Positions 3,087-42,989 of a stretch of DNA of 45,448 nt are shown here, piece after piece. Position 1 is the first letter of the stretch; each line of letters begins with the position of its first letter. Source of the stretch: an uncultured Gammaproteobacteria bacterium (GTDB lineage Bacteria; Patescibacteriota; Patescibacteriia; Magasanikbacterales; GCA-002688135); contig CAZUUO010000003.1 of NCBI GenBank assembly GCA_964622665.1, forward strand, positions 1 through 45,448. Direction: 5' to 3'. The position numbers and the translations under genes are program-made. The notes under the pieces were generated by a model that ran no database searches, had not been told where the DNA came from, and was given only the letters and a program-made list of their open reading frames with translations.

Positions 3087-6000
3087 CTAGAAGCGTACTG
3101 AACGACCTTCAAGAGGTAATCCGTTTACTTCAGTGAATGTTGTTACACCATCAGTCCAAGTTGCGTAATTTTGACCACCGTTAGCACCAGTTGATAAACC
3201 AACAGTTACACTGTCGTTTACACCAATTGATGAGTCAGATGTGTTCAAGGTTACGTAGAGGTACCATGTACCACCAGCTGAGATTTCCAAATCAGTGAAG
3301 CTAGCTGCAGGGATCTGAGTAGCTACGAAGTTTTGGTTACCGTGGTAGGTAGTTGTTGCTAACAAGTTGGTTGAATCAGTCTTATTTGATGATGCACTTT
3401 CAACTTTATAGACATTCAATGCAGCTGTTGAAGTCAATGAAACACCTGATGATGAAACATTGAAGTTCAAACCTGTCAAAGTTGCCTTGTAGTTTCCTAC
3501 GTTAGCAGTGTTGCTTACTTTGAAGATAGCAACGTTGGTTGCAGTACCACCAGCTGATGCTGATGAAGGAGCCACAAGACCTGCGTCATCGCTGATAGCG
3601 AAGCTGATCTTGGTGCGAACTGCATCCATAACGTTACCCATTAATGGAGATGAAGAAGCACCAGATGATGCACCAATCACCAAACCTGACGTTGTTGAGG
3701 CGTTAGTTGTTGAGATTGAGAAACCTGAGCCCAAACCAATAGCTTCCACAGCATTTTGCACGCCGTTAGTTACCATGTCTGAATCTCCATTGAAGATACC
3801 GAATTTGTGAGTTGAAGATGAAATACCACCTTCTGACCAAGGAGTTAAGTCAGCTTTTGCTGTCAAAACTACACTTTGTCCTTTTGGAATTACGATACCA
3901 CCCGTTGAAAGACCGGTTAAGTCAAACACTGCAACTGGAGTTGTTGTGTTCACTGAGACACCGGCACCAAATGAAGGAACAGTTCCCAATAACGCAGAAC
4001 CATTGTAAAGTTTTACGTTCTTAAGAGTACCTGTTGAAGCAAAAGGATTTGTGGTGTTGGTTGTAATGCTGTTAAGCACGTACAATTTCTTCACCAAAAT
4101 ATCTTCTGCATTTGATTCTTCAGCCATCAAGACTTTCAAGAAGGTTTGGTCGGTTGAACCGAGAACCATTTGAACGTCTGAAGGGGTGTTTGCATCTGCA
4201 GTTACACGCAACATACCACTGGTTGCTACGTAACCTGCTTGTCCAAGAGTTGTTGGAGAAACAGTTGTGGTAGCACCGGTGTTTTTACCGGTAGCAACTA
4301 CTGAGTCTACACTAACAAGTGCAGTACCGTTGATTGCTGATAATGCTGAGCTGGTGCTGCTCAAAAGGTCTGCGTAAACATCAACAACGATTGATTCACC
4401 GACGCCAACTACGAGAGCTGGAGAAACGTTGAATGTCATTGTAGCTGATGGATTTGCCACAGTTGTACCTAATTGAGATGTACCGCGCATTACACGGAAG
4501 TTGTTGAAGTATGATGACAATACATCACTTGTAGTGTTATCACCAACAACGATTGATGAAATTTCTGAAGGTTCAGCACCACCTAAGATGGTGAATGAAG
4601 CGACGCGAACGCCGGTTGCACCCAACACACCCATTGGACGAGCTGATGAATATTCACCAAGAGCTGAGTTCTTAGCAACTGACAAAGTACCTGACGCTAC
4701 TGTTACGGTACGGCCGCTTGTTGCAGCTGTTGAAATAGCAGTAAGTGAAACGATACCTTGAGCATTTGATGAACCTGCGCTCAATGAAATTGCTACGGTG
4801 TCACCAGTTGTTACTGTTGAATCGTTCAAATCAGCGTTCACAGTGAATGGAACAGTTTTACCTGCTTCCACGGTGAATGAGTTGCCGAATGTGAAGGTTT
4901 CAGTGTCAGTACCACCATTACATGTCAAGTTTGTAGCTGTTGAACCAACTTGTGATCCGTCAACTGACAATTTGATGTTTTTGATGACTGTTGAACCGTC
5001 GCCACTAGCACAAGTAACTACTAAGGTTTTGACCTTAACTGCTTCACCTGCAGCCTTCATGTTCCATTTAGCGAGCAACACGTTGGTTGAACTTGCTGGA
5101 ACATTTCCAACTGGAGAATCTGAAGCAATAGTGTTTGTCAAAGTACCGGTGTTAATTGTTGTGTTTGCTGCTGCTTCGGTAACCGCAAATGCTGCGTTAT
5201 CGTCAGCTGCAGGAACTGTCCACACGTTGTAGTTCAAATCCTTTACCATGACATCGTTAGATTCTTGGATTCCGAATTTGAATGTACGATTGGTACCACC
5301 CTTAATATCAGCACGAAGTGCTAATTGGCGTTGGTTACCAGCAATGATCTTGAATCCGCCATCTGTCAAAGTTGAAAGATCAAAATTGAGCTTCTTGTTT
5401 GTCAAAGTTGCGGTTCCAAGGTTTTGGCTACCATACCAGAGTGAGAAGTTTTGGAGGTCACTGTCATTTGTTGAACCAACGTTTGTGATGGTCAATTTGG
5501 TGACAAGCATGTCTTGGCTGTTTGCATCCAAGCGGAACTTCCAAACATCGTAACCATCTTGTGGGTCAACCGTTGTTGTTGCCAAAGGAGCTACGTTCTT
5601 CAAATCAAGGTAAGCAAGATCTGAAACGCCAACTACTGACCAGTTGCTACCAGTTGCCATTCCTGACACTGAAGCAGCGGTTGAAGTTACGTCTGCAGAA
5701 TCAAGTTTCCAACCAACAGTTGTACCTGTTGAAGTTGACTTGTTTACGTCTACAAAGAGTGATACATCAACGTATCCATTAGCTGGAACGGTGACTAAAC
5801 CACCTGTCTTTGTGAATGTAGCAAGACCCTTTGAAACTGAAGTTGATTGACCGATCAATGTCATACCATTGAAAAGGTACATAGCATCGAGGTCTGAATC
5901 AGTTTGGATACCAGTTCGGCGAAGTTTCAAACTGTCAACGCGAATTTCTGATGAACCTGCAGACAAACGGATTGTCAAAACGTTTGCACGTTGACCACCC

Positions 6001-6821
6001 GCATTGTTGCCTGAGTCAGTAAGAACGGTTGGGTTTGTTTTACCTACACCTAAGTCAGCTGGTGACAAAGATACGGTAAGTGAACCTACACCTGATGGAG
6101 TTGTTGGAGGAACAGTGGTTGATGAACCAAGGTTCTTATCAGCTGCAATTGAGGTAGCTGCTGCTTTTTCTGCTTCAGCATTGAAGTCTGAAGTTGAAGC
6201 AACGTCTGCACCCAATGTGTAGTTGGTGAAGAAGCCGTCTGGAATATCATCAATCATTTTGTTCCAGTTAGCACCAAACAAACCTGAAGCTGCTGCTTCA
6301 GTTTTTACCCAGCGAAGTGTACCGTTTTTTGCAACTGCGTATACTTTTGGATCTGAATCAACTTTCACCATGCGTACGCCTGGTTTGTATGTGACGTTGC
6401 CGCCCATAGAAATTTGACCCATGTCTGCTGCTGGAATAATTTTAACTAAACCACCTTCTGATGTTTTCTTCAATTGAGCTGAAGTGTACCATGACAAGAA
6501 AGTTTTTTGTGTTGGGAACACGTAGCGTTTACCATTGAAATAGTAATACACTGCAAATGCTCCTTTTGCATCACTGCGGATCAAGTCTCCGTCTGCCAAT
6601 GAAGCTGCTTGCGCAGTTAAAGGTGCGACGAATGCTGCGACTCCCATTGACCATGCAACGGTTGCAACGACTGTAGCTGCTGTGAATGCTTTTTTTGCTA
6701 AACGCAAAGATTCATTCATAAATTTTATTAACGCTTTGAAATTAGTAATGTACCTAACTTCAGCAGCGCTTCTCCTAAGGTTTATAGGATCGACCTTTCT
6801 GAAGGCTAACTTGACTTCCAT
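3087..6821 (-). CDS. Giant secreted/cell-surface protein (about 1240 aa), S/T/A/V/G-rich, S-layer- or adhesin-like
   Basis: Long uninterrupted ORF with hydrophobic signal/anchor AATVVATVAWSMGVAAFVAPLTAQA. The start is ambiguous. ATG 6821 has GAGGAGA 4 nt upstream. ATG 6719 lies directly before the signal peptide but has no SD. The track start is 6872. A domain shared with the 9255..12056 protein follows the signal peptide, and the remainder looks beta-rich and repetitive. Confidence 0.8.
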   Translation of the reverse strand: MEVKLAFRKVDPINLRRSAAEVRYITNFKALIKFMNESLRLAKKAFTAATVVATVAWSMGVAAFVAPLTAQAASLADGDLIRSDAKGAFAVYYYFNGKRYVFPTQKTFLSWYTSAQLKKTSEGGLVKIIPAADMGQISMGGNVTYKPGVRMVKVDSDPKVYAVAKNGTLRWVKTEAAASGLFGANWNKMIDDIPDGFFTNYTLGADVASTSDFNAEAEKAAATSIAADKNLGSSTTVPPTTPSGVGSLTVSLSPADLGVGKTNPTVLTDSGNNAGGQRANVLTIRLSAGSSEIRVDSLKLRRTGIQTDSDLDAMYLFNGMTLIGQSTSVSKGLATFTKTGGLVTVPANGYVDVSLFVDVNKSTSTGTTVGWKLDSADVTSTAASVSGMATGSNWSVVGVSDLAYLDLKNVAPLATTTVDPQDGYDVWKFRLDANSQDMLVTKLTITNVGSTNDSDLQNFSLWYGSQNLGTATLTNKKLNFDLSTLTDGGFKIIAGNQRQLALRADIKGGTNRTFKFGIQESNDVMVKDLNYNVWTVPAADDNAAFAVTEAAANTTINTGTLTNTIASDSPVGNVPASSTNVLLAKWNMKAAGEAVKVKTLVVTCASGDGSTVIKNIKLSVDGSQVGSTATNLTCNGGTDTETFTFGNSFTVEAGKTVPFTVNADLNDSTVTTGDTVAISLSAGSSNAQGIVSLTAISTAATSGRTVTVASGTLSVAKNSALGEYSSARPMGVLGATGVRVASFTILGGAEPSEISSIVVGDNTTSDVLSSYFNNFRVMRGTSQLGTTVANPSATMTFNVSPALVVGVGESIVVDVYADLLSSTSSALSAINGTALVSVDSVVATGKNTGATTTVSPTTLGQAGYVATSGMLRVTADANTPSDVQMVLGSTDQTFLKVLMAEESNAEDILVKKLYVLNSITTNTTNPFASTGTLKNVKLYNGSALLGTVPSFGAGVSVNTTTPVAVFDLTGLSTGGIVIPKGQSVVLTAKADLTPWSEGGISSSTHKFGIFNGDSDMVTNGVQNAVEAIGLGSGFSISTTNASTTSGLVIGASSGASSSPLMGNVMDAVRTKISFAISDDAGLVAPSSASAGGTATNVAIFKVSNTANVGNYKATLTGLNFNVSSSGVSLTSTAALNVYKVESASSNKTDSTNLLATTTYHGNQNFVATQIPAASFTDLEISAGGTWYLYVTLNTSDSSIGVNDSVTVGLSTGANGGQNYATWTDGVTTFTEVNGLPLEGRSVRF

Positions 6822-6825
6822 TACT

Positions 6826-6895
6826 TCTCCTCTGATTATGAGGAGATGATTATGTAGAAATGTTCTACACACTCACCTCCTCGTACTTGAGGTGG
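6826..6895 (-). promoter_or_regulatory. Three consecutive hairpins in the leader; the last one sequesters the Shine-Dalgarno sequence
   Basis: Minus strand: CACCTC-9 nt-GAGGTG (6894..6874), GTAGAA-cat-TTCTAC (6868..6854), and TCTCCTC-ataatca-GAGGAGA (6846..6826), followed by agta-ATG. Confidence 0.4.
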
Positions 6896-9254: not shown

Positions 9255-12056
9255 TTAATTATTTCCTGGCAATGATTTATCTACTGAGACATTCGTTGCT
9301 GTGTTTTTTGCGTTATAGGGATTAAAGGCACTCGATGAAGTGATATCTGATCCGGTCTTATAATTTACAAAGAATGAATCTGAAATATCTTCAACTTGCG
9401 CAGCCCATGCATAACCATACAAATCTCTTGCCACACTTTCACTTGCAATCCAACGGAGTAATCCATTACTGTCCACTGCGTATACTTTTGGATTATCAAT
9501 GAATTTTACCATCTTACTTCCAGGACGATAGGTGACGTTTCCACCCAGTGGGATGCTTGCTAATGTTGTATCAGCAACGGTAACTACCAACCCCCCTTTG
9601 TTTGTTGCCTTAAGATCAAGTGCTGTATACCAACTTAGAAACACTTTTTGATTTGGGAATGCATAGCGATACCCATTTCTGCCAATGTAGTAAACTGCTG
9701 AATTACCAGCACGCTTAATCAGCATGTGTGGATATACCCCACTTGGAAGTGAGCGAATATCGTTTGGACCCTGAGGATTTGTTGTTTCACTACCCATGGT
9801 GTCTTGTAACGTAATGGTCATGGTTGATACGTCAGTTACTGAACCATTGTCTGACGCAAACATATAGTAGACCGTTTTCAAACCATTACCTGGACTTAGT
9901 TGCCAGTACTTGATGTTTTCAAACCAATCCCATGTTGCATTTGCAAAATCACTGGTATTTGAAACCGCTACTCTGTTTGCCCCAGTTGTACCAAAATATA
10001 ATTGCACATTGCGGTAAATTGCTTTTGATTGTCCATCATTAATGCGCGCATAAGATACCAATGGTTTGTTGACTCCATTACTTACCAATTCAATAGAGTC
10101 ACACATGATACTTGATGTAGCGCCATTATTTGAGTTTCGGTAACGAACACACACATTCTGTAAACCTAATTTTGGTCGTAGGGTGTAGGTTCGTGTTGCG
10201 TAATATTGTTGATATGCACCAGCATCAGAAAGATCTGTGTTTGAACCAATCTGAAACTGATCAGCATTATTCGCAACCGTATCAAGTGTTACATAAATTG
10301 ATGATGCTGTTTGAGCGCCGCCATTGATAATAATGTTACCCGTTGGTGTGCCACTCACAATTGATCCATCAAGAGCTATAGTACCACTCACTACTTGTGA
10401 TAATTTTCCATCATTATTTTTGAATTGCACATACACTCGTTTTGAACCATTTCCGGCAAGCAAATTCCATTGTTTTGAGCTTGCGTATGATTCCCAATAC
10501 GCATCTTTAAAATCACTATAATTTGAAATTGCCATTTGGGTTGCGTTGATTGCACCCAATTGCAAAGTCACTGATTGATTATTTGTTGTTGCGTTACCAC
10601 TATTAATATTAATGTAGGGATTATAGGGTGCTCCATTTACCCCTAGTAATACATTGATAGTATCGCAAGCTACTGGTGAAATTTTTCCTGTTTGTGTGTT
10701 GCGTACTCGCGCACAAACCGTTGCGTATCCATTATTTGGTAACAATGAAATTGACTTTGTACCCCCGATTGCTTCATAACCACTTGCATTGAGCATCTCG
10801 CTATTTTGTGCAAATTGAATTTGATCACCATTGCTGCTATATACTGAAACCGAAACATCAGCTGAATATGTTTCAATAGCGCCACCAGCAATTAAGAGAG
10901 TAACCTGTGGGTCATTTGAACTTGGTGTTCCTTGGGTATAGTAACCAAAAGTGTAATGTGTTCCACTATTTCCTGATAAATACTCGCCAGTTACTGCACG
11001 CGCCGTTACATCGACATTATAGTATTGGCCGTATGTTTGATTGCTTGGATTTATTGTTACAACAGTGTTTCCTTGTGACCAAGAAGTGCTGTATGACACG
11101 TTTGGTGAAATAGAAAATGCGAATGAAGCAACATCAATTGGTTGTGTAAATGTCAAAACAATCGGTGCATTTAAACTGACTGTTGCATTACCCGCAATTG
11201 AACTACTCACGGTGGGGACGCCACCCACGTCAGTGAAGGTTGCATTATATTGTGCGTCCACTGAATTACCAACACTATCCTTGATAGCTGCTCCAGAACG
11301 AGCAAGTACTTGCCACTGTGCGCCACCTAATCCTGATACATTTGATTGATCAATATTGAATAGCAACTCAGAAGATAAAAATCCTGAGCCCACTTGGCTT
11401 GCTACTGATGACAAAGTAATAGTACGTACTACACCACTTGTTGTTGTTGCATACACCAATAAATCTTGATTTGCGGTGCTTGCGCTCGCATACACCGGCT
11501 CATTAAATGTCACCCCCAATTGTGTTGGTACATTACCAGACTTAATAAGACGTGCGCTATTTATACGTGGCGCTGTGGTATCAATTTTAAAATAATCACC
11601 ATACTGACTTTGTCCGTCATTAATATTACTGTACACGCGTGCTGTACCTTCTGAAGTCTTGTTGTTTACGAGGGCACTTATATTAGTGATGGTAATGTTT
11701 TGACCCAAAACACAGCTTTTCTTTACTGTGAAGCGTAATTCTTTTTGCCCGTAAATTTCAACTCGAGGAGGATATAGTAGTGTGGTGTCTGAAATAACCG
11801 TATTTGCCGTTGTTCTATCATCAAAAATCAAACCATTTCCTGCCTGGTTAATACCAACTACTAACGAATCCCCTTCTTTTATTTCACCCGCTGTATTGCA
11901 GCGGAAATTTATCTGAGGAATATCAATTCTACTAGTATTTCCTTTTACATCTCCCACCGCTCCAACTGAAAAGCTGAAAGCAGATGCACTAGAAACTCCG
12001 CTTAACAATGTTACTAACACGAGAGAAACTGTCCCTAATAGATGTTTCGTATTCAT
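9255..12056 (-). CDS. Large secreted surface protein (933 aa) with Ig-like region, four tandem modules and a C-terminal shared domain
   Basis: Signal peptide MNTKHLLGTVSLVLVTLLSGVSSASA, with ATG at 12056. A DTTAPRI segment is typical of SbsA/Big-type Ig-like domains. The C-terminal 129 aa are homologous to the N-terminal domain of the 3087..6821 protein. Confidence 0.8.
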   Translation of the reverse strand: MNTKHLLGTVSLVLVTLLSGVSSASAFSFSVGAVGDVKGNTSRIDIPQINFRCNTAGEIKEGDSLVVGINQAGNGLIFDDRTTANTVISDTTLLYPPRVEIYGQKELRFTVKKSCVLGQNITITNISALVNNKTSEGTARVYSNINDGQSQYGDYFKIDTTAPRINSARLIKSGNVPTQLGVTFNEPVYASASTANQDLLVYATTTSGVVRTITLSSVASQVGSGFLSSELLFNIDQSNVSGLGGAQWQVLARSGAAIKDSVGNSVDAQYNATFTDVGGVPTVSSSIAGNATVSLNAPIVLTFTQPIDVASFAFSISPNVSYSTSWSQGNTVVTINPSNQTYGQYYNVDVTARAVTGEYLSGNSGTHYTFGYYTQGTPSSNDPQVTLLIAGGAIETYSADVSVSVYSSNGDQIQFAQNSEMLNASGYEAIGGTKSISLLPNNGYATVCARVRNTQTGKISPVACDTINVLLGVNGAPYNPYININSGNATTNNQSVTLQLGAINATQMAISNYSDFKDAYWESYASSKQWNLLAGNGSKRVYVQFKNNDGKLSQVVSGTIALDGSIVSGTPTGNIIINGGAQTASSIYVTLDTVANNADQFQIGSNTDLSDAGAYQQYYATRTYTLRPKLGLQNVCVRYRNSNNGATSSIMCDSIELVSNGVNKPLVSYARINDGQSKAIYRNVQLYFGTTGANRVAVSNTSDFANATWDWFENIKYWQLSPGNGLKTVYYMFASDNGSVTDVSTMTITLQDTMGSETTNPQGPNDIRSLPSGVYPHMLIKRAGNSAVYYIGRNGYRYAFPNQKVFLSWYTALDLKATNKGGLVVTVADTTLASIPLGGNVTYRPGSKMVKFIDNPKVYAVDSNGLLRWIASESVARDLYGYAWAAQVEDISDSFFVNYKTGSDITSSSAFNPYNAKNTATNVSVDKSLPGNN
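9804..10913 (-). repeat. Four tandem protein modules of about 90 aa inside the 933-aa surface protein
   Basis: Each module follows the same pattern: I-N-x-G-x4-T-x4-V-x-L, then S-N/D-F/L, then W/Y-x-Y, then L-x4-G-x-K/Q-x-V-x3-F/R-x-N/D-x-G. Example segments: YININSGNATTNNQSVTLQL...KRVYVQFKNNDGKLS and YARINDGQSKAIYRNVQLYF...KTVYYMFASDNGSVT. Confidence 0.6.
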
Positions 12057-12093
12057 ATGATACAAGCCTACCACACTATACTAATTAATAAAA

Positions 12094-12873: not shown

Positions 12874-14112
12874 CTACAGGCTCTTCAAATGGATTGTTTG
12901 CTCATAGAGCTTAATAATACGCGGAATTATTTTGTCCGTATGATATTTTACTTCCGCCGCTAAGCGTGCGTTATTGCCCATCATTCTATTGGCGTCATTT
13001 TGTGCTTTTTGTATTGCAGAAACGTACTCATGAGTTTCAAAATTTTTACAGATGAACCCGGTGTGCCCCTCTTCAATCATTTCTGGAATTCCTCCATTGT
13101 TACTTCCTACAACAGGTAACGAACGCATATAACTTTCAAGAACAACATTAGGGAAATTGTCGAGCAATCGTGAAGGAACGAGAGTCACACAACATGTTTT
13201 TGCAATCTCATCAATTTCATCTTGTGATTTGATGCCATGCACTATAACATTTTTTGTGCGAGTCATTGCAATTTCTTGAGCTATTTTTTCTTTTTCAGTT
13301 CCTCCACCCACCAGGTGAAATATGGTATGCGGCATCGCGCGCGCACACGACAACACCACATCTACCCCTTTTTGATATGAAATACCGCCTACAAATAGGA
13401 CATCGTTTCCTTTACTAGTTATTTTTTTTCTATGCAATACCCAATTTGGAATTACCGTGATATTATTCTCATCTTTTCCCCAATCAACCATTTCTTTTTT
13501 CATGAAATTGCTTGGTGCTATATACGCATCAAAACTATCATACCAACCAAATAATTTTTGAAGATACATTTCAGCAGTTACCACCGATGAAGCGACACGA
13601 GAATTAAATATGCATTTGTTTTTAATTGCTTCGCCAAATCCACCCGTCTTACATTTTCTACAAATTGAATTATTCACATACAAGGCGTGATTAGGACAAA
13701 TGCGTTTGTAATCATGAAGTGTTTGAATAGTTGGTACCCCATGAGCTCGAAGTACCGTTACAATTGATGGTGAAAGGTGATGATAGATATTATGGAGATG
13801 CACGATGTCTGGCTTAAAATCCGCCAGGAGTTTCTTTAGATTTTCTGCGGCATCTTTTGCGTAAATAATATTCTTCGCCTCGCACAATTTTTTCCACGTT
13901 TTTCCTTTCTCTTTAAAAGATGCTTTGTTATTATGTCTTTGAGACACGAAGTATTGTGTAAACCTTTTATCTATCACCACATTATCTTGGTGATGCATAC
14001 CAAAGTACCCCACTTCAATACCCTGTGATTCCAATAATTTCCCTAATTGTATTGCATGAATGTCAGCGCCGCCGTGGGGATACCAAAATTTATTTATGAG
14101 TAACACTTTCAT
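12874..14112 (-). CDS. Glycosyltransferase family 4 (GT-B fold)
   Basis: N-terminal KVLLINKFWYPHGGADIH and C-terminal ESYMRSLPVVGSNNGGIPEMIEEGHTGF (E-x7-E region). It also contains a Cys cluster: CPNH...CRKCKTGG...C. Confidence 0.85.
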   Translation of the reverse strand: MKVLLINKFWYPHGGADIHAIQLGKLLESQGIEVGYFGMHHQDNVVIDKRFTQYFVSQRHNNKASFKEKGKTWKKLCEAKNIIYAKDAAENLKKLLADFKPDIVHLHNIYHHLSPSIVTVLRAHGVPTIQTLHDYKRICPNHALYVNNSICRKCKTGGFGEAIKNKCIFNSRVASSVVTAEMYLQKLFGWYDSFDAYIAPSNFMKKEMVDWGKDENNITVIPNWVLHRKKITSKGNDVLFVGGISYQKGVDVVLSCARAMPHTIFHLVGGGTEKEKIAQEIAMTRTKNVIVHGIKSQDEIDEIAKTCCVTLVPSRLLDNFPNVVLESYMRSLPVVGSNNGGIPEMIEEGHTGFICKNFETHEYVSAIQKAQNDANRMMGNNARLAAEVKYHTDKIIPRIIKLYEQTIHLKSL

Positions 14113-14631
14113 ATGTCGCTTCCTATTTTGTTAATTATTCTTTTTTTAATTGTCATGTACCCTTTTGCGCGTGGCGCTCGTTCACTTGCTCCATGGGTTC
14201 CTACTAAACAATACGACGTAGCTCGTTTGTGTGATCTTCTTCATCTTACCAAATCCGACACCTTTATAGAACTCGGATGTGGGAATGGGCGTGTGTGTAA
14301 TGCTGTGGCACAAACATTTCCTGAGGCACAAATTATTGGTATTGAAATTGCCTGGCCTTTGGCATATATTGCACGATTTCGTGCACGTTCATTGCAAAAT
14401 TGTACTATTATGTGTGCTGACGCACTCACCCATTCATTATCTTCAGCAACGGTTATATATATTTTTGGCATGCCTCATGCGTTGGCGCATACCGTAACCC
14501 AAAAAATACTGACTGAATGTAAGAAAGGAACACGCATTATTTCCTACTCCTTTCGCTTTCACAAACTTCCTCTTGTTGCAACCCACAAACCAGAGGGAAT
14601 GTTGGCCCTCTATGAATACGTTATTTCTTAA
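14113..14631 (+). CDS. Class I SAM-dependent methyltransferase with N-terminal TM helix
   Basis: Motif I FIELGCGNGRV. It is the only plus-strand gene wedged between two minus-strand GT genes. Confidence 0.7.
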   Translation: MSLPILLIILFLIVMYPFARGARSLAPWVPTKQYDVARLCDLLHLTKSDTFIELGCGNGRVCNAVAQTFPEAQIIGIEIAWPLAYIARFRARSLQNCTIMCADALTHSLSSATVIYIFGMPHALAHTVTQKILTECKKGTRIISYSFRFHKLPLVATHKPEGMLALYEYVIS

Positions 14632-15820
14632 GACACACCAACATCTCCTGTTCCAATTCAACAACCGCATGCTCCCACGTATATTCACGTTTTACAAAAT
14701 CGCGTGCACGTCCACCAACACTCGCATCACTTATTTTTTCTTGTAAAAAATTTCGTATACCTTCTTCCATTCCATCAACACTTGCATCTTTAAATAAGAG
14801 GCTCTCATCAACTTGTTCTAGTAATTCTACCGTTGCCCCAATAGGTGTCCCCAGTACTGGCAATCCGCAGGACAATGCTTCAAGTGTTGCTATTCCCAAA
14901 CCCTCGTAAACCTGTGTTGATAGCACAAACACATCCGCAGCTTTATACCACATCGGTAAATCCAGTTCTCGTACTCTTCCAGTTAACAAGATTCTATCTT
15001 GCATCTCCTCTTCTTTTATTTTTCTTTGTAATTCACCGTACAGTGGACCTTCACCAACTAGATACAATCGTGCATCAGGAAAATCAGGTGCCACTCGCGC
15101 AAAACTTTCGACCAGCGGCAACAATCCCATACGAGGAACCAAACGACGAACCGTCAATAACATGGTGCAATCTTCAGGAACTCCTAAGCGTGACCGCATC
15201 AAGGCTTTTGAACGTGAAGGTGCATAGGTTGTTATATCAATCCCCGTGTGAATGCGAGCAACTTTCCCTACAACATTAGGATACAGTGATTCAACTAACC
15301 CTTTTGAGTACTCTGATAATACAACGATACGATCAGATTCCTCGAGGACTTCTTTTTCAATTTTTGCCATGCGACGCAAAAAAATTCCTTTCGCAAAATT
15401 CTTTATGAAACGATATTTCCCCGTCAATCCTTGAAATGAAACTTCTTTAGGAACTGAAGCATGAAATAAATATAGCAGTGGTATCTTGTGAATTAAGGGT
15501 AATGCGGCGAATGCAACTGTTGGCTGATGAGCGACGACGATATCAAACTTTTGGTTATGTAATATTTGCTCTAACACTTTCGGCAACAACCATAAGTCGG
15601 TCACACTTTGTCCTAAAAAAAATGGCCTGCCATTGCCGTAGCGTACCACCACAACTCCTTCAATAGTTTCTTGTTGTGGTAATTCTTTTTTTAACCGTGG
15701 GGCAATTACTGTTACCTGGTGACCTCGTTGCACCAAGTGTTTTGCTTGATCAAACGCAACGCGCGCACTACCACCAACTGAATCAGGAAAAAATTGTTGA
15801 GCTAATACAAGAATGTTCAT
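14621..15820 (-). CDS. Glycosyltransferase family 4
   Basis: NILVLAQQFFPDSVGGSARV plus C-terminal YEGLGIATLEALSCGLPVLGTPIGATVELL. Confidence 0.85.
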   Translation of the reverse strand: MNILVLAQQFFPDSVGGSARVAFDQAKHLVQRGHQVTVIAPRLKKELPQQETIEGVVVVRYGNGRPFFLGQSVTDLWLLPKVLEQILHNQKFDIVVAHQPTVAFAALPLIHKIPLLYLFHASVPKEVSFQGLTGKYRFIKNFAKGIFLRRMAKIEKEVLEESDRIVVLSEYSKGLVESLYPNVVGKVARIHTGIDITTYAPSRSKALMRSRLGVPEDCTMLLTVRRLVPRMGLLPLVESFARVAPDFPDARLYLVGEGPLYGELQRKIKEEEMQDRILLTGRVRELDLPMWYKAADVFVLSTQVYEGLGIATLEALSCGLPVLGTPIGATVELLEQVDESLLFKDASVDGMEEGIRNFLQEKISDASVGGRARDFVKREYTWEHAVVELEQEMLVCLKK

Positions 15821-17226
15821 ATACGATTAAATTTCCAATTTCCATACCACACCACACACGCAAACCCCACCAAAAACCAGAGCTTTGGACTAAAATACGA
15901 CGTGTTGAACATTTGATACACAAAGGTTCCTGTCAACGCCAATACCGCAGTAGCCACCACATCTTTGTAAAAGCCCTCCATTTGTTTGCGATGGGTGAGC
16001 ACTAAATTACTCATGAGGTATCCAAAAAATAATACAAACAAGGCGAGCCCTACGATGCCAGTTTCAAAGAGGAGCTTTTGTATAAAACCATGAGCCTCCA
16101 CCCCACCACCGTACTCAATTTGAAAAACATAACTATTTGAAATGCTTGGTAAAAATGTACCAACACCATTGCCCAAAAATGGTGTTTTGGTGAATTGAAG
16201 TAATGAAATTTTTGTCAGATCAAGCCGTGTTGCTGTTGAGCTCGCCACCAAATCACTGGCCGAAAACACTCCCATATACACACTCATCCCTATGATCCCC
16301 ACAAGAAGCGGCCACCACTCAATAATGCGTTCACGAATATTGCGAGGTTGTAATAATCGATACATGAGAAAACCTTGTACTACTATGGCAATCCACGCCG
16401 TACGTGCAAACGTCAGCAGCGCCGTTGCCAGTATTGCAAATGTAGCAATCACCCACCATTTATGCGTTTGTCCTTGTGTCTGACGGGACATCAACCACGT
16501 AAACGGTGCACTGTATATTAAAATTTCAGCGAGCTGGTTATGATTTGGTCCAATAGGATAAAATTCGCCGAATGGAAACGGTGAAACGCGTCGCCACACT
16601 CCCCAAAAGGGTTCATTAATAAGCAACGATATCGCACCATACACCATAACCATAACACCCACACAACTTATTATTTTTACTATGGTTTCTATATCTTCTT
16701 TTGTCTTTGTCATCCAAAATGGCAATGCAACATATGCCAAATAGGAGAACAATACAAAGCGCACAAAATAATTCAATGATTGTCCAAACCACACGTCAGG
16801 TGCACGAAATACCGTTAAAAAAGCCAATAACAAAAATCCCCCATAAACAGTAATTCCCGGTAGATGCTCTTGAAGGTGATGTTGTAGTGTCTGCGCTTTT
16901 TCTTTTGCAAACATGCTGTAGCCATAGATGAGCAACAATGGTAATGCAATAAAATCAGAGAGTGGTGCATCCCAATTTCCTAAAATCGGAATACTTGCAA
17001 GGAGTGGAATTTCAGAAATAGTCACCGTAATACCAATAAACGGTATCAACGCGACTAGCATAAAAAAAACCGCTTTTGAAAAGCGAGTCATGGTTATTAA
17101 AACAAACAAAAGAAATAAAATGGGGATTGCAATATTTGCATGCAACAGTGAAACAGCCCCCGCTGTTATCGTTAAAATTATTGCAATAATTACCTGTGCA
17201 CCAGATTTCTGTTCTATACGTTCCAT
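15817..17226 (-). CDS. O-antigen ligase / O-oligosaccharyltransferase-like polytopic membrane protein (Wzy_C-like)
   Basis: More than 10 predicted TM segments with a larger loop in the C-terminal half. A 4-nt overlap links it to the GT4 gene. The family call rests on topology and context only. Confidence 0.5.
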   Translation of the reverse strand: MERIEQKSGAQVIIAIILTITAGAVSLLHANIAIPILFLLFVLITMTRFSKAVFFMLVALIPFIGITVTISEIPLLASIPILGNWDAPLSDFIALPLLLIYGYSMFAKEKAQTLQHHLQEHLPGITVYGGFLLLAFLTVFRAPDVWFGQSLNYFVRFVLFSYLAYVALPFWMTKTKEDIETIVKIISCVGVMVMVYGAISLLINEPFWGVWRRVSPFPFGEFYPIGPNHNQLAEILIYSAPFTWLMSRQTQGQTHKWWVIATFAILATALLTFARTAWIAIVVQGFLMYRLLQPRNIRERIIEWWPLLVGIIGMSVYMGVFSASDLVASSTATRLDLTKISLLQFTKTPFLGNGVGTFLPSISNSYVFQIEYGGGVEAHGFIQKLLFETGIVGLALFVLFFGYLMSNLVLTHRKQMEGFYKDVVATAVLALTGTFVYQMFNTSYFSPKLWFLVGFACVVWYGNWKFNRI

Positions 17227-17252: not shown

Positions 17253-17312
17253 TAAAAAACCGAGGTGTGCATGTGTACAAGCCGTAGCTTAGTTACACAC
17301 ACCCACTCTCGG
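17253..17312 (-). terminator. Long imperfect hairpin plus T-run after the Cys-rich lipoprotein gene
   Basis: The minus strand reads CCGAGAGTGGGTGTGTGTA...TACACATGCACACCTCGG followed by TTTTTT. Confidence 0.5.
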
Positions 17313-17354: not shown

Positions 17355-19289
17355 CTACGTTCCGCAGCCACCACCGAGGCAGCAATGCAAGTTCGCCTTG
17401 GGGAAGGGTGCCGTCGGCACTCCCACTCCCTCGCGCACCATCGTGCAGAAGATCTGATTCCCGCCGTAGTAGAGCGAATACGAGAGACACTGCGTCTCAT
17501 CGATACTCATACCGTCGGGGTTGGGCGCGATCCAGGTGGTATCGTTTCCTTGCTTTTCGTCGGTGTCAAACTCGACGTTCAGCCAGTAGTTTCCATCGGA
17601 AACTCCACTGACTTCGTAGCTCCACGACCAACCGGTCGCGTCACCCTGCACAGAATTGACTGGCTTGACTGCCGGCCAACCCTTCAAGTTTTCCATGATG
17701 AAGAGATCGGAGGACGGACACAGGCCATTCTCCTCGATCAACAACACAACTTCTCCGGCCGCTGGACTGAAGCTACCTGCTTCATCAGTCAAACCGTCGC
17801 AGTCGTTGTCGACAAGATCTCCCGACCATTCCGGCTGATCCGGGTTGGCCTTGGGGTTCGTGTCGTCGCAGTCGTCGCCCTTGCTACAGAGCTTCCCGAA
17901 GCCGTCCATGTCAGCGTCCTCACAGAGGCCACTGTAGTCACAGTCGGTGTCGACGACGTTGTTGCAATCGTTGTCGACGTTGTCGCCACAGACCTCAGTC
18001 ATCGGCAACTCATCCTCGTAACACGGCCCTTGGTAGGTGCCATCCCAGCAGAACTGGAGTCCTGCGGTACAAGCTCCCACACCAAGCGTCATTGGATCCC
18101 CGCCGTAACACGAAGTGGCGAGCAAGAACTCGTCATTGAGATCTTCGTCCACCAGTGCATCGCAGTCATTGTTGAGACCGTCGCACAGTTCAGGCACTGG
18201 AAGCACCTGACCAACGCATACGTCCCAAATTCCACCAGTGCAGGTCTCGAGACCTGCGTGGCAAGTGCCGACACCTTCAGTGCCGGGAGTACCACTGTAG
18301 CATGACTGGGTCAGCGGATTGCCGTCGAGGCCTTCATCCGTCGTTCCATCACAGTCGTTGTCCTTGGTGTCGCACGTCTCAGGAACCGGAGTTCCCTCCG
18401 TTGCGCCACACTCAGTCGCCGTCGTATCGGCCGTACAGACCATGACACCCGACGACATACACTCGCCAACACCAACTGAGCAGGAGGTTCCCAAGTCGGG
18501 GTATCCCTCGTCGGTCGTTCCATCACAGTCGTTGTCCTTGGTATCGCAGACATCGGTTGATGGCATCACGCTACCCGTGCAGGTCCCGAAGGTTCCTTCG
18601 AAACACGCTTGAGAACCGAGGTGACACTCGCCAACCCCCGCGTTACCAGGCAAACCGCTGTAGCATGACTGGGTCAATGCTCCATTGTTTGTCTGGTTTT
18701 CGTCGGTCGAGCCGTCGCAATCGTTGTCTTTCAAGTCGCAAGACTCGGGAGCAGGAAGGACAGAGCCATTACAGCTCCCCCACACGCCCGCACCACAAAC
18801 CGAAGTACCCACAACACAAGCACCAACACCCTTGGTGACAGCCGGGCCGTCGTAGCACTCTTTCATGAGGCTTTCGTCGGTCGTTCCGTCACAGTTGTTG
18901 TCTTTGTTGTCACAAGACTCGGGTGCTGGGATCACTTCATTGTCGCACCCAGTGTACAAACCACCGATGCAATACTGCTTGCCCTGCACACACATACCAA
19001 CGCCCGATGTTCCCACCGGACCGTTATAACAAAGCGTAAACGCTCCGTCTTCTCCACAGGGTGTTCCCGGAGGACCAGACGTGAGAGAAGCAGAGAACGT
19101 CGCGTTTTGCTTCGCCTCGTCCATGGAGGCATAACTGTTATTCTTTTTTTCTTCAGGTGTTTCGTTCGCACAAGCAACAAACAAAGAAATGAAAACGCTA
19201 AACAAAGCAATATTTTTCATCATCAGCTTGTCGCCGTGCAACGGCGACTTGTTTCCGGGCACCGCCCGGAAACGGGATTGGGTGATCAT
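17355..19289 (-). CDS. Cysteine-rich repeat lipoprotein with MopE-like C-D-x-x-D-N-D-C-D-G-x-x-D-E motifs; GC-rich foreign-looking gene
   Basis: ATG 19289 has GGAGGAG 6 nt upstream. Lipobox LFVAC has its Cys at aa 40. I hand-counted about 49 Cys. Motifs such as CDNKDNNCDGTTDE, CDLKDNDCDGSTDE and CDTKDNDCDGTTDE (twice) alternate with EGF-like G-V-G-x-C segments. Alternative starts are at 19223 and 19220. Confidence 0.8.
   Translation of the reverse strand: MITQSRFRAVPGNKSPLHGDKLMMKNIALFSVFISLFVACANETPEEKKNNSYASMDEAKQNATFSASLTSGPPGTPCGEDGAFTLCYNGPVGTSGVGMCVQGKQYCIGGLYTGCDNEVIPAPESCDNKDNNCDGTTDESLMKECYDGPAVTKGVGACVVGTSVCGAGVWGSCNGSVLPAPESCDLKDNDCDGSTDENQTNNGALTQSCYSGLPGNAGVGECHLGSQACFEGTFGTCTGSVMPSTDVCDTKDNDCDGTTDEGYPDLGTSCSVGVGECMSSGVMVCTADTTATECGATEGTPVPETCDTKDNDCDGTTDEGLDGNPLTQSCYSGTPGTEGVGTCHAGLETCTGGIWDVCVGQVLPVPELCDGLNNDCDALVDEDLNDEFLLATSCYGGDPMTLGVGACTAGLQFCWDGTYQGPCYEDELPMTEVCGDNVDNDCNNVVDTDCDYSGLCEDADMDGFGKLCSKGDDCDDTNPKANPDQPEWSGDLVDNDCDGLTDEAGSFSPAAGEVVLLIEENGLCPSSDLFIMENLKGWPAVKPVNSVQGDATGWSWSYEVSGVSDGNYWLNVEFDTDEKQGNDTTWIAPNPDGMSIDETQCLSYSLYYGGNQIFCTMVREGVGVPTAPFPKANLHCCLGGGCGT
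17781..19058 (-). repeat. Six to seven tandem Cys-rich modules (57-63 aa, about 170-175 nt period)
   Basis: Near-identical DNA segments recur, for example cgttccatcacagtcgttgtccttggt at about 18340 and about 18510. A related pair, ttcgtcggtcg...gtcgcaagactcggg, lies at about 18700 and about 18875. Confidence 0.7.
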
Positions 19290-19366
19290 GGATCACTCCT
19301 CCTCTGTCAAAGAACCCATATCCTGCATGCGTAGGACCATCCCACACCGCACAGACACGTGTGCTG

Positions 19367-19395
19367 AGCCTAGCAGATGACCCCTATTCTGTCAA
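19367..19395 (-). promoter_or_regulatory. Putative promoter of the Cys-rich lipoprotein gene at the AT/GC compositional boundary
   Basis: The minus strand reads TTGACA-17 nt-TAGGCT. The -35 is consensus and the -10 is weak. Confidence 0.35.
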
Positions 19396-19513: not shown

Positions 19514-20794
19514 TTACTTTACTGAGGAAAATAAGAGATTAGTTGGGCGAATATGCTTTTCATAACTCTCTTGTAACCGTATTTTTTTGTCTTCCTTTGT
19601 TTCTTCTTTGCTTGGTTGAGAAAGGGCAGCCAGAGATCTCACCATCCCCCTTCCCCATGTTTTAATGATGGTGTCTACCGCCATAAAGGCATTTTTTCTT
19701 TTTTCTACTTGTTTTTGATCAACTGAAAATGAGAGTTGGGTATTTTTTATATTTTGCATTTCAGACAATGTTACCCCTGTTGTGCGGTACTCTCTTCCCT
19801 TTTTATACATTTTCGCAAACATTTTTTGTAAGGCAGGAATGAAATCAAGAGGAATATTACTTGCTTGTTCAATATGGATATTTTCAGTGGTGATAATAAA
19901 ATTTTGTGTTTTAAGAAAAATAGCGATAGCGGTTGCTTTCGTGTTATGTAATCGTAACTTGTAGCAAGCGCGTTCTAAATTTACGATACACTGTCGATAC
20001 ACTTCTTGTTCTTGTGTTGTTTTTTCGAAGGTGTGAGATTTTGTAATAGTAAGATAGGAAGTTTTTTTAGTTGTCATCACTTCAAATACTGCAATCCCTT
20101 TTAACTCTTTGTAGGTTGTTAATAGGGGTGCGTCAGCGTGGCGCATAACAAACAACTCTCCACGAGCAATAAAGTCACTCACGGTTTTGATACCAAAACG
20201 TTGTAATAATTTTCTTTGCGCAACGCCGATACCCCACACATTTTCAATGGAAGTCTTTTGGGTCACCACTGCAACATCCTCTGATGAAATCATAACCTTT
20301 CGATTATGTGGTTTGTTATATGAACTTGCAATTTTTGCAAGAGTCTTACTCTTAGCACAACCAACAGACACCGAAATACCTAATGACAATTCGACATCTT
20401 CTTGAATGCACTGTAATAATTTTTCATAACTCATTTCTAGTGTTTGTGGAAGGTCTGTAATATCAGCAAATACTTCATCGATTGAATATTCTTCGACGTC
20501 ACCACAATAACTTTTAACAATATCAAACATTCTTCGTGAAAAAAGATTGTATACTTCAAAATCTGAATTAGTAATAATCGCGTGTGGGCACAATTGTTTC
20601 ACTTCTGCCATTCTCATTCCTCTTTTTACCCCGAATTTTTTTGCCTCATAACTAAATGCTGTTGCAATTCCTTTTTCTCCCCCGCATACAACTGGTTTCC
20701 CTTTCCATTGTGGATGCATTGCTTGTTCACACGATGCAAAGAATGCATCTGCATCAATATGAAGAATAACCCGTGATGAATTTCGAGTGCTCAT
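19514..20794 (-). CDS. dinB: Y-family DNA polymerase (Pol IV/DinB-like)
   Basis: ILHIDADAFFASCEQ, SIDEVFADITD and the little-finger region fit the family. It sits downstream of lexA on the same strand. Confidence 0.85.
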   Translation of the reverse strand: MSTRNSSRVILHIDADAFFASCEQAMHPQWKGKPVVCGGEKGIATAFSYEAKKFGVKRGMRMAEVKQLCPHAIITNSDFEVYNLFSRRMFDIVKSYCGDVEEYSIDEVFADITDLPQTLEMSYEKLLQCIQEDVELSLGISVSVGCAKSKTLAKIASSYNKPHNRKVMISSEDVAVVTQKTSIENVWGIGVAQRKLLQRFGIKTVSDFIARGELFVMRHADAPLLTTYKELKGIAVFEVMTTKKTSYLTITKSHTFEKTTQEQEVYRQCIVNLERACYKLRLHNTKATAIAIFLKTQNFIITTENIHIEQASNIPLDFIPALQKMFAKMYKKGREYRTTGVTLSEMQNIKNTQLSFSVDQKQVEKRKNAFMAVDTIIKTWGRGMVRSLAALSQPSKEETKEDKKIRLQESYEKHIRPTNLLFSSVK

Positions 20795-20826
20795 ATGACA
20801 ATGGTTAGATATATATCCCTATTCTT

Positions 20827-21183
20827 TTATACGGGAACTCCTACTGATTCCATTTCTGCACACAATAATTTGCCAATTTCTTCAGATAATCTTTGCAAGG
20901 TGGCGTATTCGTGTTGTGGAATTTCTTGTTGGGTAAAGAGGAGATACAATAAATACTTTGCTTCTTTCAGTAACCCAAATGATTTTTCAAGATTTTCTTT
21001 TTTAATTGATTCCCTCTGTAATGATACCGCATCGATATACTGTAATATCATGTTGAGTGAACTGGTGCGTAATGTTGATTTTAATTCTGGAATTTCTACA
21101 TTACTTGGTGTTGTGCTCAAGCGAAATATTTGAGCAACGAACTGATGCATACGCGTGCGTAATACGTCTTGAAATTCTGTCAT
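20827..21183 (-). CDS. Small helical protein, possibly four-helix-bundle (Avd / 23S rRNA IVS-protein-like)
   Basis: 118 aa. The helix layout and spacing resemble the S23-IVS/Avd family (LKSTLRTSSLNMILQYIDA...FGLLKEAKYLLYLL...EEIGKLL). This is only a pattern-level impression. Confidence 0.35.
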   Translation of the reverse strand: MTEFQDVLRTRMHQFVAQIFRLSTTPSNVEIPELKSTLRTSSLNMILQYIDAVSLQRESIKKENLEKSFGLLKEAKYLLYLLFTQQEIPQHEYATLQRLSEEIGKLLCAEMESVGVPV

Positions 21184-21191
21184 AAAAAATA

Positions 21192-21773
21192 TTATCGATA
21201 TTTACGAATAACTGCAGTAACTACACCAGCCACTGATAGCGCATTATTAGGAACTATTGGTCGATATTTTCTATTCGCTGGTCGCAACACGACATCTCTT
21301 CCTTTTTTCTCAAAAAACTTCATTGTCCATTCATGATCAACCTCTGCTACGACGATGTCACCATTTCTTGGATTTTTTCCACGTTCGAGAACCACGAAGT
21401 CTCCTGGTTGAATTCCGGCATCTATCATAGAGTCGCCTGAAACTTTCAATAAAAAACTTGCTTGGTGATTGGTAATCAAGAAATCATCGAGACTCACAAT
21501 GTCTGAAATTTCTTCTTCCGCATGTGTTGGGAACCCTGCTTGTACAGTTCCCAAAATTCGCAATCCTTTTTTTAAACCAAGTGGTACTAATTTTCCTTCA
21601 CTATCTTTTTCAATGAGCCGTGCATCAATCATTTTCTGTACTATTTGGAATACTGCATTTTTAGACTTAACTTCAAACAGTTCTAGCATCTCACGATAAC
21701 TCGGTAATCGCTTGTTTGCATCAAGAAACTTTCGAATTACGTTGACGCGTGTATCAAATTGATCGACTGACAT
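21192..21773 (-). CDS. lexA: LexA repressor (winged HTH plus S24 peptidase)
   Basis: Cleavage-site VQAG, catalytic Ser in SGDSM, Lys in TMKFF, and an N-terminal HTH. Confidence 0.9.
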   Translation of the reverse strand: MSVDQFDTRVNVIRKFLDANKRLPSYREMLELFEVKSKNAVFQIVQKMIDARLIEKDSEGKLVPLGLKKGLRILGTVQAGFPTHAEEEISDIVSLDDFLITNHQASFLLKVSGDSMIDAGIQPGDFVVLERGKNPRNGDIVVAEVDHEWTMKFFEKKGRDVVLRPANRKYRPIVPNNALSVAGVVTAVIRKYR

Positions 21774-41769: not shown

Positions 41770-41901
41770 GACAACTGTCGCTGGAAAGACAAGGAAGGGG
41801 GAGGGACGCGTGTTGACACATCCCTTCAAACGTGGAGCGTTAACTCCATGTTGAGCACTCAGAGGATCTGAGCACTCACCCCTCCCTCAGCGAGGCGGTT
41901 G

Positions 41902-42783: not shown

Positions 42784-42989
42784 GTGTTTTCTCCGTGTGC
42801 GGGTGGCAATCGATGCCCCCGCGTCGTCGTTTGGGAGAGCGCTTGGGCAACCACACCATTGTGGATGACCCTGTGTGCGAACTCCCTCTAGTCTCTGAAC
42901 TTCTACAGTGCAAGAGCGCATTACTTTCCCGTAACGCACTCTCACGATTCGATCGTCTTGTCCTTTTTCATCGTTTTCAGGCGATGAGT

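Follow-up and report, generated by a model that had tools for sequence, protein, structure and literature searches.

We analysed a gene for a cysteine-rich lipoprotein of 644 amino acids (aa), which lies at 17355..19289 (minus strand, stop codon included) on a 45,448-nucleotide (nt) stretch of contig CAZUUO010000003.1. This whole stretch is called the window, and coordinates are window positions unless another locus is named; L numbers denote loci fetched from other genomes and P numbers denote protein matches. The gene has a GC content of 0.56 and a GC fraction at the third position of its codons (GC3) of 0.64, and this GC3 anomaly is inherited and maintained. On balance, we regard the gene as a vertically inherited, clade-conserved envelope gene of Patescibacteria (candidate phyla radiation, CPR) with class-selected codons. 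The protein itself joins the MopE-related Cys-rich repeat proteins and the Cys-rich extracellular proteins of CPR bacteria, and the interesting part is the conserved codon anomaly. In the literature covered, which was partial and is no proof of novelty, we found no paper on GC-rich codon usage of CPR surface genes and no prior report of a compositionally distinct, vertically inherited gene class in CPR.

Composition and inheritance of the lipoprotein gene

The GC content of the region 17355-19395 was 0.558, compared with 0.406 for the window minus its two GC-rich islands. An earlier reading of the same DNA without database searches (the sequence-only reading) had given these values as about 60% and 35-40%; the contrast is real, with the first figure slightly high and the second slightly low. 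GC content stepped up at ~17340 (from ~0.37 to 0.55-0.63) and returned to background at ~19390, at a resolution of 100 nt. The codon statistics confirmed the deviation: the GC3 of the lipoprotein gene was 0.639, compared with a mean of 0.332 (standard deviation 0.045, range 0.22-0.44) for the 39 other window genes, corresponding to z=6.9. When we compared synonymous choices with the rest of the window, they were inverted in almost every amino acid, as in AAG (0.75 vs 0.20), GAC (0.69 vs 0.27), TTC (0.75 vs 0.21) and CAG (0.69 vs 0.20). Codons ending in C and in G were both raised across nearly all amino acids, and NNC was preferred over NNU in every 2-fold family. A-ending codons were scarce (A3 0.12 vs 0.34), while the T-ending codons of 4-fold boxes were used as in the background.

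Since the shift is one of GC3 and of the synonymous codons chosen for nearly every amino acid, the GC excess of the gene is not an amino-acid effect, and amino-acid content was rejected as its source. Gene conversion or concerted evolution of the internal repeats was rejected as well. The DNA repeats inside the gene are old, being 62-81% identical over 31-61 nt; TRF detected zero repeats, the modules are colinear among orthologues, and the highest GC3 (0.71) is found in the non-repeat C-terminal domain, compared with 0.63 in the repeats. On the opposite strand, an open reading frame (ORF) of 306 aa (17385-18305, plus strand) and several shorter ones overlap the gene; these are expected from stop-codon-poor GC-rich sequence and are no evidence of a gene.

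The best full-length matches of the lipoprotein were P0002 (63% identity), P0013 (49%), P0028 (41%) and P0038 (40%), with 94-100% coverage, and their contigs have a GC content of 42-47%. In the window, the conserved downstream neighbours, assigned with Pfam, occupy 12874..17226 and have a GC3 of 0.31-0.37. They are a Wzy_C O-antigen-ligase-like membrane protein (15817-17226), a GT4 glycosyltransferase (14621-15820), a methyltransferase (14113-14631) and a second GT4 (12874-14112), all on the minus strand except the methyltransferase. The order lipoprotein, Wzy_C (469-470 aa), GT4, a gene of ~175 aa and GT4 is kept in L002, L003, L004/L005 and L007. Syntenic lipoprotein orthologues are found in L001-L005 and L007-L010, with a partial copy in L006, and our survey of sister genomes found the gene upstream of Wzy_C in all close relatives whose assembly covers the region (L001-L004, L006 in part, and L007-L010). 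The junction of the lipoprotein gene to Wzy_C recurs in at least seven independent assemblies. The GC3 of the orthologues was elevated in all of them (0.57-0.64), compared with 0.28-0.46 in most neighbours (up to 0.51 in L002). When we compared pairwise identities of the lipoprotein with those of the adjacent low-GC Wzy_C protein (21 pairs, seven genomes), the values were near-equal and co-varied with r=0.98, which is a distance comparison rather than a full tree test and indicates that the two genes diverged together. At 4-fold sites of identical residues, the third-base identity between orthologues was 0.30-0.37, compared with 0.25-0.28 by chance, indicating that synonymous sites are at or near saturation.

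The sequence-only reading had taken the gene as an acquired island that was unexpected in a reduced low-GC genome, and had named best matches in related low-GC genomes of the same composition as the result that would speak against this; such matches are what the search returned. A recent single-gene acquisition from a high-GC, Myxococcota-like donor with the foreign composition intact would account for the sharp compositional boundaries and for a GC3 lying 6.9 standard deviations above the other window genes. The repeat family also agrees with such a donor. As the sequence-only reading had stated, the repeat type is common in high-GC Myxococcota: the named matches of the lipoprotein are mostly Myxococcota, and the top matches to the repeats alone (P0004 and P0005, 45-47% identity) lie on contigs of 68-70% GC and have a GC3 of ~0.9, the same as their neighbours. 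However, we consider a recent acquisition highly improbable. First, syntenic orthologues of the same composition stand in related low-GC genomes. Second, the gene co-diverges with the low-GC Wzy_C gene, and its synonymous sites are saturated between orthologues. Third, no mark of mobility was found: there are zero tRNA genes in the window, no direct or inverted (att-like) repeats flank the gene, and no mobility genes are among the annotated neighbours (DinB, a LexA-like S24 peptidase and the glycan genes). Finally, a donor-like GC3 would be 0.9 or more, well above the 0.64 of this gene, and the promoter and leader are common to the orthologues. A known point of comparison is given by compositional islands from horizontal transfer and by the amelioration model of Lawrence and Ochman. 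The lipoprotein gene resembles such islands in its sharp single-gene deviation of GC and codon usage, but differs from them in its presence in sister genomes, its co-divergence with a neighbour, its want of mobility marks, and a composition left unameliorated despite saturation. When a GC-rich gene turns up in a low-GC genome, the routine reading is horizontal transfer, and such genes are sometimes removed from metagenome-assembled genomes (MAGs) as contamination. Here the transfer reading is demonstrably wrong, as the deviant composition is inherited, shared by the orthologues and limited to coding sequence.

The genome belongs to a reduced bacterium of the CPR type, in agreement with the reduced low-GC genome of the sequence-only reading. 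A Wzy_C scan of the GTDB species genomes gave 38 loci, and every named one belongs to a Patescibacteria/CPR MAG (Parcubacteria ARS125, Magasanikbacteria, Uhrbacteria, Falkowbacteria and Peribacteraceae). Many third-party annotation (TPA) MAGs are titled 'uncultured Gammaproteobacteria bacterium' (L006, L008-L011, L014-L017 and others). These have synteny and sequence in common with Parcubacteria/Magasanikbacteria MAGs and chromosomes of 1.2-1.3 Mb; apparently their label was either misassigned or serves as a placeholder.

Relatives differ at the upstream junction. The window has DinB (IMS) next to the lipoprotein gene and, further upstream, an ORF of 118 aa and the LexA-like S24 peptidase (19514-21773). 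In L003 (1-9875) and L004 (1-9800), eight genes separate DinB from the lipoprotein gene, including those for sigma-70, a dehydrogenase, a thiamine pyrophosphate (TPP) enzyme, GFO_IDH, NrdD, NrdG and purA, and in L002 RsmH stands upstream. The purA gene just upstream of the lipoprotein gene (L003 8595-9875; L004 8526-9800) is mildly GC-enriched (GC 0.49-0.53, GC3 0.44-0.49) when compared with the genes around it.

GC3 excess in other genes and the force that may maintain it

Of the 38 CPR Wzy_C loci, 20 have a same-strand Cys-rich gene upstream of Wzy_C, and in all 20 the GC3 of this gene exceeds the locus median (0.49-0.92 vs 0.23-0.77). The strong cases are L015 (0.82 vs 0.25-0.30), L024 (0.81 vs 0.23), L029 (0.92 vs 0.39-0.40) and L043 (0.78 vs 0.28). 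In the distant loci L009 and L010 the values were 0.58 vs 0.44 and 0.87 vs 0.59, and in the Peribacteraceae locus L013 they were 0.80 vs 0.61. The excess is also found in lipoproteins upstream of Wzy_C that are not Cys-rich, with GC3 of 0.98 (L038) and 0.93 (L041) vs 0.48; between these two loci the lipoproteins are 88% and the Wzy_C proteins 92% identical. At L044, a Patescibacteria locus unrelated to these, the GC3 of four genes for secreted proteins or lipoproteins is 0.79-0.83, compared with 0.45-0.48 for trigger factor and prolyl-tRNA synthetase (0.45-0.57 with the sugar-nucleotide enzymes included). Over all loci, ORFs with a lipobox had a median excess GC3 of +0.24 (n=18) vs 0.00 (n=341; Mann-Whitney p=6e-9), in a biased, preliminary sample of loci chosen by Wzy_C adjacency and with crude regular-expression calls.

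Runs of two to five adjacent GC3-rich genes (0.5-0.93) occur in CPR genomes with a median GC3 of 0.27-0.48, at L015 823-9537, L041 931-9563, L029 5512-8110, L035 4886-9522, and L044 7844-13282 and 16878-17642. Their products mostly carry an N-terminal signal peptide or lipobox and, with few exceptions, have no Pfam match. By contrast, MopE-repeat genes on a contig of a DPANN archaeon (Aenigmarchaeota) are at background GC3, which indicates that the repeat itself is not the cause of the GC excess. Based on these archaeal genes and on the GC3-rich CPR lipoproteins without MopE repeats, we rejected GC-richness intrinsic to the repeats.

The GC enrichment is confined to coding sequence, the window leader excepted. 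Spacers between adjacent GC3-rich genes are near or below the overall locus GC: those of L041 have a GC content of 0.47-0.48, compared with ~0.6-0.7 for coding sequence and 0.53 for the locus, and those of L015 have 0.42-0.45 (locus 0.45). L003, L004 and L007 have AT-rich leaders, and the 3' untranslated region in the window has a GC content of 0.36. This gene-by-gene enrichment of coding sequence between native spacers argues against block transfer, regional GC-biased gene conversion (gBGC) and transcription-linked mutation, and it argues for a force on translated sequence.

The same observations bear on an ancient transfer, in which the MopE repeat would have passed from a GC-rich lineage into the ancestor of the CPR clade and been inherited vertically since, the present GC being a slowly fading remnant of incomplete amelioration. 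In favour of this account, the repeat region is 45-47% identical to proteins of 70%-GC genomes, compared with 41-44% to distant CPR orthologues, and the amino-acid composition is GC-shifted too. However, such a legacy should fade at the synonymous rate, and yet the excess persists in L009 and L010, whose proteins are 21-35% identical (an alignment-dependent value), and it is largest in the most distant loci (L015 and L024). In addition, spacers between GC3-rich genes are near background GC while GC3 is not, and the same excess is present in non-MopE lipoproteins. We therefore regard this account as quite unlikely, and an ancient inter-phylum transfer, if any, cannot explain the present composition.

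A further explanation treats the locus as that of a variable surface antigen and as a hot spot of recombination, where gBGC, or recurrent replacement (allelic or xenologous) from a pool of GC-rich alleles, would hold GC high. The joint rise of G- and C-ending codons across nearly all amino acids would agree with it, as would the variable upstream junction and the strain variation of Cys-rich surface proteins in Peribacteria described in PMC4736985. We nevertheless find a hot spot improbable. The enrichment ends at gene ends, with in-cluster spacers near background GC, and the asymmetry in 4-fold boxes, where A-ending codons are depleted but T-ending ones unchanged, is not expected from gBGC. 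Co-divergence with Wzy_C speaks against replacement between lineages, and the internal repeats have had no recent homogenisation. Moreover, a survey of 145 bacterial species ascribed the link between recombination and GC content to selection and not to gBGC (PMC11879095).

Because the GC3 excess is coding-confined, common to orthologues and other lipoprotein genes, and kept despite synonymous saturation, a gene-class-specific force on translated sequence must maintain it. We suggest, with chances that we see as about evenly balanced, that this force is most likely selection tied to the expression or export of surface lipoproteins, acting on the speed of translation or the stability of the mRNA. 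The codons of the envelope-locus lipoprotein would then be under class-specific selection, with A-ending codons avoided and C- and G-ending codons favoured.

Several observations weigh against this suggestion. First, GC1 and GC2 are also raised, so that the amino-acid composition of the GC3-rich genes is GC-shifted, which fits a long history of GC pressure or a foreign origin as well. Second, the 5' leader in the window has a GC content of 0.55, so that the confinement to coding sequence is imperfect there, and the lipobox statistic carries the sampling bias given above. Third, codon usage is unshifted in AhpC and SOD of the window and in trigger factor of L044, indicating that GC-ending codons are not generically 'optimal', and in an Akashi-type test GC-ending codons were not enriched at conserved residues. 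Finally, a functional link to Wzy_C would rest on conserved adjacency, with a strong terminator between the two genes. No ribosomal-protein or EF-Tu genes were among the fetched loci.

The third of these points bears equally on ordinary translational optimisation, which would make the lipoprotein a very highly expressed, S-layer-like major surface protein and the GC-ending codons the optimal codons of its genome. The consensus -35 box, the strong Shine-Dalgarno sequence, the 5'-terminal hairpin and the strong terminator would agree with high expression, and 5'-terminal hairpins of this kind stabilise mRNAs; the preference for NNC over NNU in every 2-fold family also points that way. But AhpC, SOD and trigger factor, which are usually abundant, are at background codon usage, and the Akashi-type test gave no accuracy signal. 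Moreover, AAG, GAG and CAG are preferred over their A-ending counterparts and GC3 reaches 0.98, which is atypical for the optimal codons of low-GC or slow-growing bacteria. Ordinary optimisation is thus unlikely, although it deserves some weight.

Class-specific selection may be part of a wider pattern. We propose tentatively, as a possibility that we would not yet call probable, that Patescibacteria keep a GC-ending 'codon dialect' for exported surface lipoprotein genes, which would be coding-confined, vertically inherited and, despite AT pressure, kept at an equilibrium of its own over divergence at the class level. Such a dialect might serve to build the host-contacting surface through a programme based on translation speed, mRNA stability or tRNA gating, with the window gene as one conserved member. 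In Streptomyces, the TTA codon and bldA define a regulon by codon. The lipoprotein genes would be similar in that a functional gene class is marked by codons rare elsewhere in the genome; unlike TTA/bldA, the entire coding sequence is shifted rather than one codon, and the window holds no tRNA gene. We know of no dedicated tRNA for the GC3-rich class. If the pattern is genome-wide, GC3 excess would mark a class of CPR surface lipoproteins and point to the likeliest host-attachment proteins. It would also pose an evolutionary problem, namely how individual genes of slow-growing symbionts that drift towards AT keep a GC3 of 0.6-0.98, and would call for caution with composition-based calls of horizontal transfer and with bin cleaning in these lineages.

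Protein architecture, expression signals and related systems

The Pfam family PF11617 (Cu-binding_MopE) matched the 644-aa protein in seven stretches with 109 bits (cut-off 27; E=1.2e-31), which confirms the MopE-type Cys-rich repeat lipoprotein of the sequence-only reading; its estimate of about 49 Cys is exactly the number counted. Regular expressions found six C-D-x-K-D-N-D-C-D-G-x-x-D-E-type motifs, plus a canonical copy at aa 473-503, and five G-V-G-x-C-x-x-G-x-x-x-C hairpins. The tandem modules described before are thus present, whereas their EGF-like character is a resemblance only, since the EGF models of Pfam were silent at E<=1. The same Pfam scan gave nothing beyond PF11617, hence no S-layer family either, and an NCBIfam scan of the protein gave no match.

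The protein begins with a basic N-terminal extension (aa 1-22), which is kept in L001, followed by a signal peptide with lipobox (aa 23-40, ...SLFVAC, Cys40); together these span 19170..19289 on the minus strand, and the start ATG is at 19289. Cys40 is invariant in eight full-length orthologues, is preceded by a hydrophobic stretch and has A, S or G at position -1, in agreement with the lipobox criterion for bacterial lipoproteins (Lgt/LspA substrates). No lgt or lspA gene was found among the ~30 window proteins scanned with Pfam, a set that leaves out a few window ORFs. A low-complexity linker (aa 41-77; 19059..19169, minus strand) has a low predicted local distance difference test score (pLDDT) in the AlphaFold2 (AF2) model. 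It leads to seven Cys-rich modules (aa 78-505; 17775..19058, minus strand) with a period of 58-64 aa, colinear across orthologues, each consisting of a GVGxCxxGxxxC hairpin and then a PF11617 C-D-x-x-D-N-D-C-D-G-x-x-D-E motif. The C-terminal domain (aa 506-644; 17358..17774, minus strand) is a predicted beta-sandwich by its strands in the AF2 model and has weak Ig-like similarity (Big_7/Big_3_3-type). The mean pLDDT of the model was 61, with 70-82 for most modules and 50-70 for the C-terminus, and with this modest model Foldseek found no fold match in the PDB at E<0.1. When we searched the C-terminal domain against 1.84 billion representatives, the sole full-domain match was the orthologue P0013 (E=3.9e-17); the other matches were weak and partial, to the Big_7/Big_3_3 Ig-repeat proteins P0123-P0125 (P0123 E=5e-10). 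A sequence search of the PDB with the orthologue profile gave no chain at E<=0.01, and hence nothing that would connect the protein with the copper site solved in MopE.

In order from its N-terminus, the protein has a lipid anchor, a linker, seven Cys-rich modules as a stalk and a putative Ig-like tip, and this architecture suggests an adhesin-like or surface-layer-like role. We infer that the lipoprotein would be exported and lipid-anchored via Cys40, and that the seven disulfide-rich MopE-type modules, probably stabilised by Ca2+, would form an extended stalk carrying the putative Ig-like beta-sandwich at its distal end. The acidic D-x-D-N-D-C-D-G-x-x-D-E motif resembles a Ca2+ site.

The lipoprotein gene appears to have transcription signals of its own: a promoter and a long leader that contains a 5' hairpin precede it, its Shine-Dalgarno sequence is strong, and an intrinsic terminator follows. 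The promoter-like element (19367..19395, minus strand) consists of a -35 box TTGACA (19390-19395), a 17-nt spacer and a weak -10 box TAGGCT (19367-19372). The promoter proposed in the sequence-only reading thus holds for its -35 box and for its position, which is the same in L001 (-10 TAGTCT) and L002 (TAGAGT), whereas the -10 box matches only 3/6 bases and for this reason the element falls below the threshold of the consensus scan. The 5' leader (19290..19366, minus strand) contains a 5'-proximal hairpin (~19317-19359), UUCUUUGACA and the Shine-Dalgarno sequence GAGGAGG (19298-19304). A 5'-proximal hairpin followed by a single-stranded YCTTTGACAA-like motif is common to the leaders of the window, L001, L002, L003, L004 and L007; the hairpin stems differ in sequence between lineages, and the orthologue leaders are 65-150 nt long. 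The hairpin may be an mRNA-stabilising 5' stem-loop or the site of a regulator. A non-coding RNA or riboswitch in the GC-rich stretches was rejected: no Rfam match reached the gathering score in the window, neither this leader nor that of the second island matched Rfam at E<=1, and whole-leader folding z-scores were not significant. The terminator, also noted before, is a long GC-rich hairpin followed by UUUUUU at about 17254..17312 (minus strand), with -32.6 kcal/mol and z=-5.3; 0 of 200 shuffles folded as well. These elements are circumstantially compatible with a heavily expressed, stable mRNA.

The lipoprotein gene always adjoins the glycan module of Wzy_C, two GT4 and a methyltransferase, which plausibly glycosylates the lipoprotein or builds its surrounding matrix. 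In a known arrangement, S-layer or surface glycoprotein genes are paired with Wzy_C-type O-oligosaccharyltransferases such as WsaB and PglL. The window locus is like these pairs in placing an exported surface-protein gene, with strong promoter, long structured leader and own terminator, beside a Wzy_C protein, two GT4 and a methyltransferase. It is unlike them in that the product is a lipoprotein of Cys-knot-like modules without a match to a Pfam S-layer family.

Compared with the MopE-related PF11617 proteins of Myxococcota and relatives, the window family has the same repeat and is likewise secreted, multi-modular and Cys-rich. It differs in having a lipobox anchor and, at the C-terminus, a specific, putatively Ig-like domain, and in its fixed place beside Wzy_C; in addition, the window gene deviates from the composition of its own genome while the Myxococcota MopE-type genes match theirs. 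In CPR, Cys-rich extracellular proteins resembling Myxococcus repeats have already been reported for Peribacteria. According to that paper (Anantharaman et al. 2016, PMC4736985), the large Cys-rich extracellular proteins of Ca. Peribacter riflensis likewise have a CPR host, signal peptides and high Cys content, but they average 1655 aa and come from a genome of 58% GC. A compositional contrast would be invisible at that GC content, and a text search of the same paper found no mention of GC-rich codon usage. In the Peribacteraceae locus L013, the Cys-rich gene is upstream of Wzy_C, as in the window.

Second GC-rich island and further observations

The window has a second, stronger GC-rich single-gene island at about 41800-42950 (GC 0.62-0.66, GC3 0.87, z=12), not listed in the sequence-only reading, with an ORF of 293 aa at 41902-42783 on the minus strand in which AAG, AAC, TTC, ATC, TAC and CAG are each used 100%. 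The protein has no signal peptide and no Pfam or PHROG match, and among 5.8 billion proteins it has two homologues only, both on ~1 kb contigs. The homologue in L047 also has a GC3 of 0.87 and an AT-rich upstream region. The leader of ~170 nt (42784-42960, minus strand) is kept in L047 (350-524), though the proteins are 48% identical; the common blocks include AATCGTGAGAGTG, CTCTTGCA and GCTCTCCCAA.CGAC..GCGGGG.CATCGA.TG.CACCCGCAC.CGGAGA. In L047, a promoter TTGACA-17-TATACT lies ~430 nt upstream of the start. The conserved leader is a possible candidate for a cis-regulatory RNA.

Two large genes of the window, both on the minus strand, have a raised GC2 (0.45-0.49) and a normal GC3 (0.28-0.33). 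One (3087-6872) encodes 1261 aa without a Pfam match, and the other (9255-12074) encodes 939 aa with a weak Big_5 match and a signal-like N-terminus. Their size and composition suggest that both are exported, in which case not every exported protein of the genome is GC3-shifted.

In L016, L022, L023, L026, L027, L033, L034 and L042, a gene of normal GC3 with a radical-SAM-like motif (LPIDCVLAVTYRCNSRCTMCDIW) stands directly upstream of Wzy_C. In five of these loci (L016, L022, L023, L027 and L034) it is flanked by Wzy_C on one side and by a short, Cys-rich gene of high GC3 on the other, and this arrangement hints at a post-translational modification of the Cys-rich product.

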